A DNA stretch of 64,000 nt from NCBI GenBank assembly GCA_963825175.1, contig CAWGSA010000001.1, forward strand, positions 1,116,706 to 1,180,705, in the 5' to 3' direction. How positions within the stretch are numbered: the stretch's first letter is position 1; each line of letters opens with the position of its first letter. A program made the translations under genes and the position numbers. This DNA comes from an uncultured Acidobacteriota bacterium. GTDB taxonomy: Bacteria; Acidobacteriota; Thermoanaerobaculia; UBA5066; Gp7-AA6. The notes under the pieces were generated by a model, which saw only the letters and a list, made by a program, of their open reading frames with translations, had not been told where the DNA came from and did not search any database. Of the stretch, positions 6,036 through 46,570 are shown piece after piece.

Positions 6036-6113
6036 TGACGTGCGACGTTCTAAGTTCTACGTTCTACGTGTGGCGTTTCTACGTGCTCCCAACTTAGAAC
6101 GTCGCACCCGTCA
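6036..6113. terminator. about 21-bp inverted repeat spanning the spacer between convergent genes; putative bidirectional terminator
   Basis: The arm TGACGTGCGACGTTCTAAGTT at 6036-6056 is complementary to AACTTAGAACGTCGCACCCGTCA at 6091-6113 with a 2-nt bulge. The loop contains GTTCTACGT three times. The right arm includes the stop codon of the methyltransferase gene. Confidence 0.45.
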
Positions 6114-9064: not shown

Positions 9065-9200
9065 GTGCCCTTCGCGGCGCGACCAAGTTTCGCCGACTGG
9101 ATCGGCGAAACGACTCGCGTCGCGGGAGCCGGAGCGGAGCTCTCGGGATCAGGGCCGCGGCCGAGCCAAACGGGCGAGCCGCGGTCCGGTGCGCCCGCCA
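9065..9200. repeat. partial copy, reverse orientation, of the REP/MITE-like family
   Basis: CGGCGCGACCAAGTTTCGCCGACTGGATCGGCGAAACGACTCGCGTCGCGGGAGCCGGAGCGGAGC is nearly identical to 46428-46490, followed by a degenerate hairpin CCGAGCCAAACGGGCGAGCC. Confidence 0.65.
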
Positions 9201-27601: not shown

Positions 27602-27813
27602 GGGAGGGATCGGTTTATCGGTTCATCGGTCCATCGGATCATTTGCCCGGATGGAGCGACCCCAGCCGAGATCAACCGATGAACCGATGGATAAATGGAC
27701 CGATTCCAGGGAGGGATCGGTTTATCGGTTCATCGGTCCATCGGATCATTTGCCCGGATGGAGCGACCCCAGCCGAGATCAACCGATGAACCGATGGATA
27801 AATGGACCGATTC
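27600..27813. repeat. perfect tandem duplication of a 107-bp unit built from CATCGG / CCGATG modules
   Basis: GGGAGGGATCGGTTTATCGGTTCATCGGTCCATCGGATCATTTGCCCGGATGGAGCGACCCCAGCCGAGATCAACCGATGAACCGATGGATAAATGGACCGATTCC occurs twice, at 27600-27706 and 27707-27813. The second copy runs into the start of the next gene. Confidence 0.85.
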
Positions 27814-29112: not shown

Positions 29113-29500
29113 ACGTCGCCTCCGCTGCGCGGCGGGATCTGCGGCTTCGGCCGCACCGGTGTCCGGCTCGGCCAAAGGCCTCGACCGGACGCCTGAGCCC
29201 GCCGCTTCGCTCCGGCTCCCGCGACGCGAGCCGTTTCGCTCGGTCAACTTCGCGAAACTTGGTCGCGTCGCGAAGGACCAACCAAGCCCGAAACCAACGT
29301 CGCCTCCGCTGCGCGGCGGGATCTGCGGCTTCGGCCGCACCGGTGTCCGGCTCGGCCAAAGGACCTCGACCGGACGCGAAGGCACCAACCAAGCCCGAAA
29401 ACCGGTGTCCGGCTCGGCCAAAGGCCTCGAGCGGTCGCCTGAGCCCGCGGCTCCGCGACGGCACCCCGAAGCCAGGCCCGTTTCCGGGGCCCTGAGGCAC
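29110..29500. repeat. three tandem copies of the REP/MITE-like structured repeat
   Basis: Hairpin cores GGTGTCCGG-CTCGGCCAAAGGCCTCGA-CCGGACGCC at 29158-29193, 29342-29377 and 29404-29440. The module CGGCGGGATCTGCGGCTTCGGCCGCACCGG repeats at 29126 and 29304. The GCTCCGGCTCCCGCGACGCGAGCCGTTTCGC module is at 29204. Confidence 0.8.
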
Positions 29501-43443: not shown

Positions 43444-45453
43444 GTGGAAGAGATCGGGAACGCGGCGCTCGCGCCGATCGAGCGAGAGCTGGTCGAACGA
43501 TACGGGCAGGCGCAGCGCGCCGCCGTCGGCCGGGGCCTGGCCCAGGCCGCGCGGTTCTGGCGCGCCGCGGACGGAACGGCGGCCGACTTCGCCGACCTTG
43601 CCCGGACCCACTTCGCCGGCGACACAGCCGCGCGGGATGCCCTCTTCTCGCGGATGGAGTTCGCGTTGGAATCCCTGGACGGCCACATGTTCGAAATCGC
43701 ACGCGATTTTCGGCGCCAGGCCGACCTGGACCTGGGAACCGTCCACCCCTTCGACGAGATCCTGGCCGGGTACGATCCGTCCGCGCACGTCGCCGACGAC
43801 TGGTTCGCCAACAAGCTCGCCTTCGCGGTGCTGCTGAACTTCCCGCTGACCACGCTGGCAGAGCGCCTGCGCGAGGGAGACAGTTGGACCCGGCGCCAGT
43901 GGGCAGAGACGCGCCTGGCCGAGCGCTTCTCCAAGCGCGTCCCCGCCGACGTGCATCTGGCCATCGGCAAGGCCGCGGCGGAGGCCGAGCAGTACATCGC
44001 CGGCTACAACGTCTGGATGCACCACGTCCTCGCGTCCGACGCAAGCCGCCTTTTTCCGCCCGGGCTGCGCCTGCTCGCGCACTGGAACCTGCGCGACCAG
44101 ATCAAGGCCGACTACGCCGAGCCGGCGTCCCGCGGCCTCCCCCGCCAGCGCCTGATCGCCGCGGTCTTCGAACGGATCGTCACGCAGACGATCCCCGCGG
44201 CGGTGATCGACGATCCGCGCGTCGACTGGGAGCCCGCCGGCAACACCGTCGCGCCTTCCACAGCCGACGACGTGGATCGGTCCGTCCCGATTGCGAGGTC
44301 CCCCGACTCCGGACGCGAGCCGGACACGCGGTACGCCAAGCTCCTCGCAACCTTCCGCGCCGCGCGGCTGGCCGATCCGTTCTCGCCGACCGCCCCCACG
44401 ATGATCGCCCGCCGCTTCGAAGAGAGCCGGCAGATCCCCGAAGACCGCGTCTGCGGGATCCTGGAAGATGTCCTGGCCTCCCCGCTCGCGCCGCGCGCCG
44501 CGCGCCTGATCGAGAAGCGGTTGGGCCGTCCGCTCGAGCCCTTCGACATCTGGTACTCGGGATTTCGCCCCGCCGCCGGCCGCGCGGAAACCGAGCTCGA
44601 TCTCCTGGTGCGGGAGCGCTACCCGACGCCCCAGGCCTACGAGCGGGACATTCCGCGGCTGCTCGGGCTTCTCGGATTCTCCGCGGCGAAGGCGCACCAC
44701 CTGGCCGATCACATCGTGGTCGATCCGGCGCGCGGAGCCGGCCACGCCATGGGAGCGGCCCGCCGCGAGGACAAGGCGCACCTGCGCACGCGCGTGCCCC
44801 CGGCCGGCATGGACTTCAAGGGCTTCTCGATCGCGGTCCACGAGATGGGGCACAACGTCGAGCAGGTCTTCTCCTTGAACGACATCGATTCGACGCTCCT
44901 GCAGGGCGTTCCCAACACCGCCTTTACCGAGGCCCTGGCCTTCGTCTTCCAGAAGCGCGACCTGGAGCTCCTCGGCCTGGCCCGGCCGGACCCCGCGGAG
45001 CGCTCCTGGAAGACGCTCCACGACTTCTGGAGCACCTTCGAGATCGCCGGCGTGGCGCTGGTCGACATGGGCGTGTGGCACTGGATGTACGACCATCCCG
45101 ACGCGCCGCCAGAAGACCTGCGGGAAGCGACGCTGGCGATCGCGCGGGACGTCTGGAACCTCTACTACGCGGCGGCCTTGCGTTCGCGCGACCAGGTGCT
45201 CCTGGCTGTCTACTCCCACATGGTCTCCTCCTTCCTCTACCTGCCCGACTATCCTCTGGGCCACTTGATCGCCTTCCAGATCGACCGCCAGATGGAGAAG
45301 GCGGGGGCGATCGGGCCCGAGTTCGAGCGCATGGCCCTGATCGGCAATGTCACGCCGGATCTCTGGATGAGGCGAGCCACCGGCTCGCCCGTCGGCCCCG
45401 AAGCCCTGCTCGAGGGAACCGAGGAGGCTCTGGCGGCATTGGCCCACTCCTAG
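43444..45453 (+). CDS. hypothetical protein with HExxH zinc-metallopeptidase motif
   Basis: 669 aa. HEMGHNVEQ motif. I recognise no family. Confidence 0.5.
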   Translation: MEEIGNAALAPIERELVERYGQAQRAAVGRGLAQAARFWRAADGTAADFADLARTHFAGDTAARDALFSRMEFALESLDGHMFEIARDFRRQADLDLGTVHPFDEILAGYDPSAHVADDWFANKLAFAVLLNFPLTTLAERLREGDSWTRRQWAETRLAERFSKRVPADVHLAIGKAAAEAEQYIAGYNVWMHHVLASDASRLFPPGLRLLAHWNLRDQIKADYAEPASRGLPRQRLIAAVFERIVTQTIPAAVIDDPRVDWEPAGNTVAPSTADDVDRSVPIARSPDSGREPDTRYAKLLATFRAARLADPFSPTAPTMIARRFEESRQIPEDRVCGILEDVLASPLAPRAARLIEKRLGRPLEPFDIWYSGFRPAAGRAETELDLLVRERYPTPQAYERDIPRLLGLLGFSAAKAHHLADHIVVDPARGAGHAMGAARREDKAHLRTRVPPAGMDFKGFSIAVHEMGHNVEQVFSLNDIDSTLLQGVPNTAFTEALAFVFQKRDLELLGLARPDPAERSWKTLHDFWSTFEIAGVALVDMGVWHWMYDHPDAPPEDLREATLAIARDVWNLYYAAALRSRDQVLLAVYSHMVSSFLYLPDYPLGHLIAFQIDRQMEKAGAIGPEFERMALIGNVTPDLWMRRATGSPVGPEALLEGTEEALAALAHS

Positions 45454-45654
45454 CAGCCCGTGGAAAAATGGATGCGGGCGTCGTGTCCGGCTTTTTGCAT
45501 AGGAAGTCTCGGCAACTCCAGCGGAGTCGAGAGGAGTCGAGATCTTCTTCCGCGGTGAGTGAAAGATCGCAAAAAGCCGGCCACCCCAAGGGGTTGCGGC
45601 GGCGCGGCGCTCGCACGCCACGCCGCCTCACACCCTTTTTCCACGGGCTGCGAG
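45453..45654. other. about 200-bp nested inverted-repeat structure (structured ncRNA or MITE candidate)
   Basis: GCAGCCCGTGGAAAAA (45453-45468) pairs with TTTTTCCACGGGCTGC (45637-45652). Inner pair CCGGCTTTTTGC (45492-45503) pairs with GCAAAAAGCCGG (45569-45580). Confidence 0.5.
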
Positions 45655-45780
45655 GAGACTTCTCGCGATGCGAGAGCTGCGACTTCGGCCCTGGACGTTC
45701 GACGCGCGCCGGCCGAGTGTCGCGATAGACTTGCGCCCGCCTCGATGGATCGGGGATCCGAAAGAAAGGAAATGCGAAAG

Positions 45781-46236
45781 ATGAAGAAGTCGGGCTTTCT
45801 GTTGCTGGCGGCCGCCCTCGCCGTGGCCCTGTCGATTCCGGCGATTGCCGACGAGAAGAAGGACGACAAGAAAGGCGAGTCCAAGATGCACAAGACGCCG
45901 AGCGGCCTCCAGTACGAGGACACGGTCGTCGGGGCCGGCGATTCCCCCAAGACCGGTCAGACCTGTGTGATGCACTACACCGGCTGGCTCTGGGAGAACG
46001 GCGCGAAAGGAAAGAAGTTCGACAGCTCCGTCGATCGCGGCAAGCCCTTCAAGTTCCAGATCGGCCGTGGCATGGTCATCAAGGGATGGGACGAAGGTGT
46101 GGCCACGATGAAGGTCGGCGGCAAACGGACTCTTCTCATCCCGCCGCAGCTCGGCTACGGCACGCAGGGCGCCGGCGGCGTCATCCCGCCCAACGCCACG
46201 CTGATGTTCGACGTGGAGCTGCTGGGGGTCGAGTAG
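45781..46236 (+). CDS. FKBP-type peptidyl-prolyl cis-trans isomerase (periplasmic)
   Basis: Signal peptide, then FKBP domain (GLQYEDTVVGAGDSPKTGQTCVMHYTGWL...FDSS...PFKFQIGRGMVIKGWDEGVATMKVGGKRTLLIPPQLGYG). Confidence 0.85.
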   Translation: MKKSGFLLLAAALAVALSIPAIADEKKDDKKGESKMHKTPSGLQYEDTVVGAGDSPKTGQTCVMHYTGWLWENGAKGKKFDSSVDRGKPFKFQIGRGMVIKGWDEGVATMKVGGKRTLLIPPQLGYGTQGAGGVIPPNATLMFDVELLGVE

Positions 46237-46239
46237 GGC

Positions 46240-46570
46240 GGTCGGCTTCCGGCTTGGCAAGGGCGAGGTGCAGGTCGCGTCCGCTCGATCGGGATCTGCG
46301 GGCCGGAGCGCGGACGGGGACTTGACGCGGGCGGCCGCGAGGGCCGCCCCTACGGCACCAATCGCAAACGTTCGTAGGGGAGGGGCTTGTCCCCGCCCCC
46401 GCTCCGGTTTGCCCGCGCTTTCGCGGCGCGACCAAGTTTCGCGGACTGAATCCGCGAAACGACTCGCGTCGCGGGAGCCGGAGCGGAGCGCGCGATGAGG
46501 CGTTTGGTCGAGCCCCTTTGGGCGAGCCAAACGCCGGTGCGCCGAAGGCGCACATCGCGAGCGAAGCGGA
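46240..46570. repeat. composite copy of the REP/MITE-like family
   Basis: CCGCTCGATCGGGATCTGCG module at 46281. CGAAAC...GTTTCG module at 46398-46490. Hairpin core GGCGTTTGG-TCGAGCCCCTTTGGGCGAGC-CAAACGCC at 46499-46535. Confidence 0.8.

Follow-up and report, generated by a model that had tools for sequence, protein, structure and literature searches.

MITEs (miniature inverted-repeat transposable elements) that duplicate a TA target are known in bacteria, where they are linked to transposases of the IS630/Tc1-mariner type; the Correia elements of Neisseria and RUP of Streptococcus pneumoniae are examples. Here we describe an element of 199 bp with terminal inverted repeats (TIRs), found in a 64,000-nucleotide stretch of DNA from an uncultured bacterium of the Thermoanaerobaculia (Acidobacteriota; assembly GCA_963825175.1, contig CAWGSA010000001.1, positions 1,116,706 to 1,180,705). 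This whole stretch is hereafter called the window, and the element lies in it within the 325-bp spacer upstream of a gene encoding an FKBP-type isomerase. The element belongs to a hitherto undescribed family of palindromic repeats of soil Acidobacteriota, whose members are small, non-coding and probably mobile. With a probability of roughly 0.6, we read it as a non-autonomous, TA-targeting, MITE-like transposable element of the IS630/Tc1-like insertion type.

The TA-duplicating MITEs are the closest analogues of this family. As in them, the members are small (~100-300 bp), non-coding and bounded by TIRs, tend to have TA at both flanks with an apparent preference for CTAG, lie between genes near gene ends, can fold into a long hairpin and have a variable interior. 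In contrast to them, the family shows a low copy density, and its interior is a mosaic of other hairpin repeats. The REPIN/BIME-type mosaics come second. The TIR repeats of the REPIN/BIME/TIRtron kind (PMC3733652) are likewise dispersed extragenic palindromes built of hairpins, mosaic in structure and found downstream of genes, and TIR families were reported in Acidobacteria, the host phylum of our element too. No sequence similarity to the family was found in Rfam, plasmids or viral contigs, and the literature on MITEs and repeats in Acidobacteria and Thermoanaerobaculia yielded no description of it. The family is an addition to an abundant soil phylum known mostly from metagenome-assembled genomes (MAGs), and it accounts for a structure at risk of being taken for a riboswitch or small RNA in annotation, as well as for spurious open reading frame (ORF) calls across the element.

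A dispersed family with conserved ends and variable interiors

The nested hairpin of 200 bp does exist, and chance would hardly have produced it. A pattern search of the window recovered an outer and an inner pair of arms, both perfect (Table 1), and the first-pass annotation, made from the letters of the window alone, had located this nested inverted repeat correctly to within 3 bases, the element ending at 45651 and not at 45654. The outer pair can be extended to 39 nt at 79% complementarity, which brings in the final codons of the upstream gene together with its TAG stop; for the inner pair, the extension reaches 16 nt at 94%. The predicted RNA fold of positions 45447-45660 reached -119.7 kcal/mol on the + strand (z = -7.6) and -123.2 kcal/mol on the - strand (z = -8.3), values equalled by 0 of 200 shuffles. 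A count of perfect 16-mer inverted repeats no more than 400 nt apart yielded 3 seeds for the window, whereas first-order Markov simulations had 0.07 each, an excess of about 40-fold in which the element accounts for one of the three seeds. As to the remark that A- and T-tracts are unusual in this genome and occur here only inside the paired arms, the 64 kb contain 27 tracts of at least five A or T, and 4 of these fall within the 200-bp element, all of them inside its arms.

Homologues of the element occur at 25 or more unrelated sites, in two other Acidobacteriota MAGs and in many soil-metagenome contigs. With one genome taken for each of 185,579 species, a scan for CCGTGGAAAAA-N(152-182)-TTTTTCCACGG, which demanded exact 11-mer ends, returned six loci. 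Two of these are clear homologues, both in other Acidobacteriota MAGs (L019 7683-7877 and L018 1795-1988); they are short-form copies, one in each species, placed in unrelated contexts and in opposite orientations. The remaining four loci, from Comamonadaceae, Desulfobacterales, Syntrophales and Nostocaceae, had only the required 11-mers in common with the element and were set aside as chance. The left-end 19-mer gave at least 50 loci in a metagenome scan, with 37 family members among the matches listed; the other 13 are unrelated to the family, and several look like coding sequence. Once the same site recovered from several samples was merged, at least 20 complete and 5 partial distinct sites were left, with one copy of the element per fetched contig. 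The suggestion that the inverted repeats mark a MITE is therefore supported at the level of the family, the same TIRs being present, often flanked by TA, at unrelated sites in other Acidobacteriota and in soil metagenomes; within the 64-kb window itself, a pattern search, blastn and a profile hidden Markov model found no further copy.

Likeness between copies ends at the boundary of the element. Eight long-form copies from eight unrelated sites share 87-96% identity while their flanks stand at background (~59%), and no neighbour gene recurs beside the family members among the fetched loci. A nearly identical variant was found at two different sites (L030 and L067), and one orthologous site held two different internal variants (L027 and L064).

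An alignment of 18 members shows little or no variation in the left end (CAGCCCGTGGAAAAATGGATGCGGGCGTCG...) and in the right end (...GCTCGCAACGCCGCCTCACACCCTTTTTCCACGGGCTG). Alignment columns 5-29 do not vary at all, and the conserved left end runs on to ~45484 in the window copy. Conservation is ~90% over the outer ~40 nt on either side, and what lies between them varies and is built of modules. The ends of the window copy are 86-92% identical to those of other copies, against 45-61%, which equals background, for its centre; this 70-nt centre is specific to the window copy, is itself a hairpin and has no match above background in any other family member.

The members measure 159-287 nt, that is, they are short (<~500 bp), non-coding and bounded by TIRs conserved among copies, as MITEs are. 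The window copy can be described as a closing stem formed by the TIRs (P1), a left hairpin (P2) and a right, GC-rich hairpin (P3). Short forms, to which the window copy belongs, are ~175-197 bp long; long forms of ~260 bp carry an extra 85-nt hairpin module within the loop of P3, whose sequence is conserved in both short-form and long-form members. In replacement forms (e.g. L027 and L061), P2 and half of P3 are exchanged for an unrelated 140-nt palindrome.

Interior modules of the long and alternative-centre forms were also found alone, at L033 620-680, L055 400-460, L068 2588-2646 and L025 3560-3622, on the same contigs as long-form or alternative-centre family members. As both kinds of module occur alone elsewhere in the fetched contigs, we regard them as independent small repeat families nested in the element.

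The lengths of the members differ by non-multiples of 3, which confirms that the long ORFs predicted across the element are artefacts. Used as a query, the best read-through frame matched only 19 short proteins, annotated as 'hypothetical protein' at most and devoid of Pfam domains. These spurious gene calls were also tried as a copy counter; none of the 19 proteins came from a large contig, and they were uninformative on the number of copies per genome.

With the window copy as query, blastn against the plasmid collection was empty; a long-form copy gave no more than short, GC-rich matches attributable to chance. In viral contigs the 16-mer TIR had 13 matches, all single and unpaired and consistent with chance, the left-end 19-mer had two (L074, and L073, a contig equal in length to that of L038, an unrelated AT-rich match from the metagenomes) and the right-end 22-mer none; no family member was present among the viral contigs inspected. 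Three of the viral (IMG/VR) chance matches (L009 1168-1366, L014 798-996 and L016 2174-2372) lie in arrays of four direct repeats (CAGCCCATGGAAAAA...) at a CRISPR-like spacing of 60-62 nt, which are unrelated to the element.

The probable TA target and the stop codons

The boundaries of the element were defined by comparing 20 complete sites. The base before CAGCCC was G and the base after GGGCTG was C in every one of them; since this terminal G and C never vary, the true ends of the element are GCAGCCC...GGGCTGC. The adjoining dinucleotide was TA at 13 of 20 left ends and at 11 of 20 right ends (24 of 40 overall), with TA on both sides at 7 sites, and most of the remaining flanks are one base away from TA. 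TA is a scarce dinucleotide in this DNA, making up 0.87% of those in the window, where 10 CTAG are found although base composition would predict 184. The window copy itself is flanked by TA on the left and GA on the right.

Elements of the IS630 family go into TA sites and duplicate these 2 bp (PMC2170065, on IS630 and ISY100), and IS630 itself prefers CTAG (PMC2170065 and the title of Tenzen & Ohtsubo 1991 cited in it). The pattern of flanks in our family looks like the insertion signature of IS630/Tc1-mariner elements, with a target duplication that we infer from these flanking bases. Of the 40 ends, 10 depart from the usual outermost flank base (C on the left, G on the right) and 0 from the inner G or C; for this reason a 2-bp TA duplication fits better than a 4-bp one. 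We also considered a 4-bp CTAG duplication of the IS5-like type, which was the poorer fit: the TA model accounts for the sites L056 (T-TA-[element]-TA-G) and L024 (C-TA-[element]-TA-T) without any mutation.

At 4 of the 20 sites a confirmed gene ends exactly at the terminal TA+G. Besides the window, where the gene encodes a 669-aa protein, these are L024, with an OmpR-type response regulator, L048, with a PolB-like exonuclease, and L054, with a GHMP kinase. At least 12 of the 20 sites lie within ~40 nt of the 3' end of a gene, and genes read into the left end and into the right end equally often (6 and 6). Because the first G of the element rebuilds TAG in place, insertion into the TA of a stop codon is neutral for the protein. 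To our knowledge, a terminal G that rebuilds a TAG stop has not been described for families of the Correia/RUP type.

Together, these data suggest how the family might spread. The conserved ends of ~40 nt would be the binding and cleavage sites of a transposase supplied in trans, and the interior would be a variable set of hairpin modules. Insertion would take place into a TA dinucleotide, often within CTAG, with duplication of the TA as in IS630/Tc1-mariner. When the TA belongs to a TAG or TAA stop, a TAG would be rebuilt at the same position, the protein would be unchanged and the insertion could persist. In the window the junctions read ...TCC TA|GCAGCCC...GGGCTGC|GA GGAG. Such docking on stop codons might explain how a TA-targeting element can persist where TA makes up 0.9% of dinucleotides, and the ends of the family with their TA flanks offer a concrete handle for finding the responsible transposase. 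In addition, elements of this kind can break MAG assemblies and can serve as strain-typing markers.

Several observations weigh against a transposable element of this type. There is one copy in the 64-kb window, one per fetched contig and, in the genome scan, one in each of two species, so that copy density appears far lower than that of a classic MITE burst; the scan count was obtained with exact 11-mer ends and a spacing of 152-182 nt. No autonomous element or transposase with these ends, nor a further pair of ends at an IS-like spacing, was seen among the fetched loci, where no targeted search for TIR pairs 0.8-2 kb apart was made. Intact TA on both flanks is present in just 7 of 20 sites and, as CTAG is palindromic and no clean empty site was available, the duplication is not strictly separable from an extended inverted repeat. 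The flanking TA is more decayed than the ends of the element, which calls either for selective constraint on these ends or for gene conversion from copy to copy. Finally, the hairpins are maintained by compensatory changes, as detailed below, beyond what binding of a transposase alone requires.

The host locus and the fold of the element

The window has a G+C content of ~69%. The features of the element and its surroundings are collected in Table 1.

Table 1. Positions in the window of the element, its parts, the adjoining genes and other repeats
Feature	Position	Strand	Remarks
Upstream gene, 669-aa protein	43444-45453		No Pfam domain; TAG stop at 45451-45453
Left flanking TA, presumed target-site copy	45451-45452		First 2 bases of the TAG stop
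Left TIR, outer arm GCAGCCCGTGGAAAAA	45453-45468	+	16 nt, perfect; first G is the last base of the upstream stop
Inner hairpin P2	45483-45584		Stem GTGTCCGGCTTTTTGC / GCAAAAAGCCGGCCAC; -44.9 kcal/mol, z = -4.2
Inner arms CCGGCTTTTTGC	45487-45498 and 45569-45580		12 nt, perfect
Copy-specific centre, enclosed by the P2 stem	45499-45568		70 nt
Right-hand GC-rich hairpin P3	45588-45638	+	-35.1 kcal/mol, z = -6.05; runs into T5 at 45636-45640
Right TIR, outer arm TTTTTCCACGGGCTGC	45636-45651	-	16 nt, perfect match to the left arm
GA, presumed decayed second TA target copy (T to G)	45652-45653		
FKBP-type isomerase gene	45781-46236		Signal-peptide-like N-terminus
GTAG-headed GC-rich palindromes	46340-46400		
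GTAG-headed palindrome GTAGGGGAGGGGCTTGTCCCCGCCCC	46374-46399		
Repeat of ~85 nt CCTTCGCGGCGCGACCAAGTTTCGCGGACTGGATCCGCGAAACGACTCGCGTCGCGGGAGCCGGAGCGGAGC	46428-46495		
Repeat of ~85 nt, second copy	9079-9150		
Repeat of ~85 nt, third copy	29190-29266	-	
Inverted repeats ATCGGTTCATCGGTCCATC / GATCAACCGATGAACCGAT	27617-27795		19 nt; at least 4 alternating arms, period ~53 nt
Inverted repeat GTGCGACGTTCTAAGTT	6040-6107		17 nt, perfect; 34-nt spacer

The gene order around the element, with a DUF72 gene on the other strand upstream, the 669-aa gene, the FKBP gene and an E1 dehydrogenase gene, is kept in the two nearest relatives, L001 and L003, whose 669-aa proteins are 88% and 77% identical to that of the window. 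The element is absent from the orthologous spacers of both (432 bp in L001 and 670 bp in L003). In L002 and L003 the orthologue of the 669-aa gene has the same ...TCC TAG ending as the window gene, without the element, which indicates that the TAG stop is older than the element. A stop that was already in place also fits insertion of the IS630/Tc1-mariner type. The lineage of the window would thus have gained the element after its split from the L001 lineage. The reconstructed empty site of the window (...CAC TCC TAG GAG ACT TCT CG...) bears a loose likeness to L001 (...TAA GGA GCT CGT CG...).

Between the 669-aa gene and the FKBP gene, both relatives carry a small Cys-rich ORF of 69-73 aa (MVVLEDFT...CCPRCGR...PQDCC; L001 7148-7357 and L003 7263-7484), 81% identical between the two, of which tblastn found no trace in the window. 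Homology of the element to this ORF was considered and rejected, as the MAFFT alignment was forced there and tblastn of the ORF against the window was empty.

The homologues of the 669-aa protein are annotated as proteins of Thermoanaerobaculia or Acidobacteriota MAGs, and at least 7992 were found at E <= 1e-30 among the 8000 candidates scored. The protein has a HEMGH motif (AVHEMGHNVEQ), which suggests an uncharacterised family of zinc metallopeptidases.

The RNAalifold consensus of the 18 aligned members has 95.3% of its cells forming pairs, and 12 pairs had changes in both partners, where shuffles gave 3.9 +/- 1.7 and slid controls 1-7. These compensatory changes in the stems imply that the hairpins are maintained. 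The window copy contributes them at alignment pairs 36-141 and 44-132; at the latter, a C-G pair became U-A, by which the T4/A4 inner tract of the family became T5/A5 in the window. Covariation in the distal part of P2 stems largely from replacement of the whole hairpin and not from point compensation. Among the variable pairs, 14 were G.U and 18 were A.C, without strand asymmetry, and since both mismatches are about equally frequent, neither strand is favoured as RNA. This pattern would fit both the maintenance of a palindrome at the DNA level, by arm-to-arm correction or gene conversion between copies, and selection on transcripts of both orientations.

In the window P3 and the U5 that follows it (45636-45640) resemble a rho-independent terminator, with a stable GC-rich hairpin (-35 kcal/mol) directly before a U-run on the strand of the upstream gene, and base pairing of the upstream A5 tract of the element with the U-tract is possible, a trait of bidirectional terminators too. 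Unlike intrinsic terminators, P3 is embedded in a putatively mobile palindrome of 200 nt. A simple consensus terminator scanner made no call at P3, whose stem has bulges, and the opposite strand does not show the canonical hairpin-plus-U arrangement. From its predicted fold, P3 with U5 may terminate transcription of the upstream gene, and as a side effect of the insertion the transcript of this gene would probably end before the conserved block upstream of the FKBP gene. However, given that the family shows no orientation bias relative to the adjoining genes, termination would be at most a by-product in this orientation.

Other explanations and neighbouring repeats

The main mechanistic rival of an IS630/Tc1-like element is found in the long-TIR repeat families tied to tyrosine transposases. 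The element would then be a REPIN/BIME-like palindrome mobilised as single-stranded hairpin DNA by an HUH tyrosine transposase (IS200/IS605-type) of the RAYT/TIRYT kind, and its conserved ends and hairpins would be the recognition structure. Transposition of the IS200/IS605 type produces no target duplication and uses an asymmetric target at one end only, unlike the TA found symmetrically at both ends in our family. Every module of the element is a hairpin, with stems kept by compensatory changes, and smaller palindromic repeats, also found on their own, make up its interior in mosaic fashion, much as in BIMEs. Moreover, other palindromic repeats lie in the same spacer region, including the GTAG-headed one at 46374-46399 and the repeat with three copies in the window, and TIRYT genes with long TIRs and dispersed TIR families were described in Acidobacteria (PMC3733652). 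Even so, the ends of the element (GCAGCCCGTGG) carry no conserved GTAG or CGTC tag; with 160-290 bp it is much longer than REP units (20-40 bp), and no Y1 transposase gene, nor any other adjoining tyrosine transposase gene of the kind expected for REPIN/TIRtron repeats, was seen beside the fetched copies. We consider this explanation unlikely.

To a similar degree we doubt that the family is a mobile 'stop-codon-docking terminator cassette', which would target TA, land harmlessly on the stop codons of unrelated genes through the terminal G that rebuilds TAG, and be kept because its hairpins, preserved by compensatory change, provide termination or stabilisation of 3' ends in genomes that are very rich in GC and have few TA sites and U-tracts. 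If this were the case, Acidobacteriota would have domesticated a selfish element as a source of portable 3'-end signals across the phylum.

Somewhat less probable still is a function as structured RNA, be it as a small RNA gene or as a 3'-untranslated-region/terminator module selected for its structure and spreading or persisting because it stabilises or terminates transcripts. The very stable predicted folds, the consensus with 95% of its cells paired and 12 covarying pairs, the proximity of at least 12 of the 20 sites (within ~40 nt) to a gene's 3' end and the terminator-like P3 with U5 on the + strand are all consistent with it. Nevertheless, the element is missing at orthologous loci, and P2 and half of P3 are swapped wholesale in L027 and L061, as described above. 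The hairpin with U5 exists in one orientation only, yet genes enter the element 6 and 6 times from either end, and the equal frequencies of G.U and A.C favour no RNA strand. Rfam gave 0 matches in the 64-kb window at gathering thresholds; at E <= 10 the only hit was a sub-threshold PreQ1-III (12.5 bits against a threshold of 63, E = 9.3), which is not credible, and no family matched the element. Such an RNA would also leave the TA flanks and the exact abutment on stop codons unexplained. The first-pass proposal of a small RNA or of a leader for the FKBP gene is therefore left unsupported, as the family members have neither a consistent neighbour gene nor a consistent orientation, and the element is absent from orthologous spacers with the same gene order.

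As for the leader in particular, a cis-regulatory or attenuator role in FKBP expression, which has in its favour the position of the element within the spacer, is very improbable and already contradicted by the comparative data, because relatives have the same FKBP gene without the element, other family members do not lie beside FKBP genes, and the block that the window shares with L001 and L003 immediately before the FKBP start codon (cgatagact..., then the ribosome-site region AGAAAGGAA) sits downstream of the element. The consequences of the insertion for the biology of the FKBP gene are probably small.

The window contains other repeats (Table 1). They crowd the spacer that follows the FKBP gene downstream, and among them are GTAG-headed, GC-rich palindromes that resemble REP elements of the GTAG type; a similar GTAG-headed palindrome (GGGGACAAGCCCCGCCCCTAC) lies at L002 7030-7075, and pairs of GTAGGGGC...GCCCCTAC are present in L066. 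A second dispersed repeat of ~85 nt, unrelated to the element, has a nested hairpin inside and is also found once in L003 (7005-7095), at a different intergenic position; unlike the element described here, it is clearly multi-copy in this genome. A series of alternating 19-nt inverted repeats lies further upstream in the window, and a 17-nt inverted repeat is the sole other perfect one of at least 16 nt in the 64 kb.

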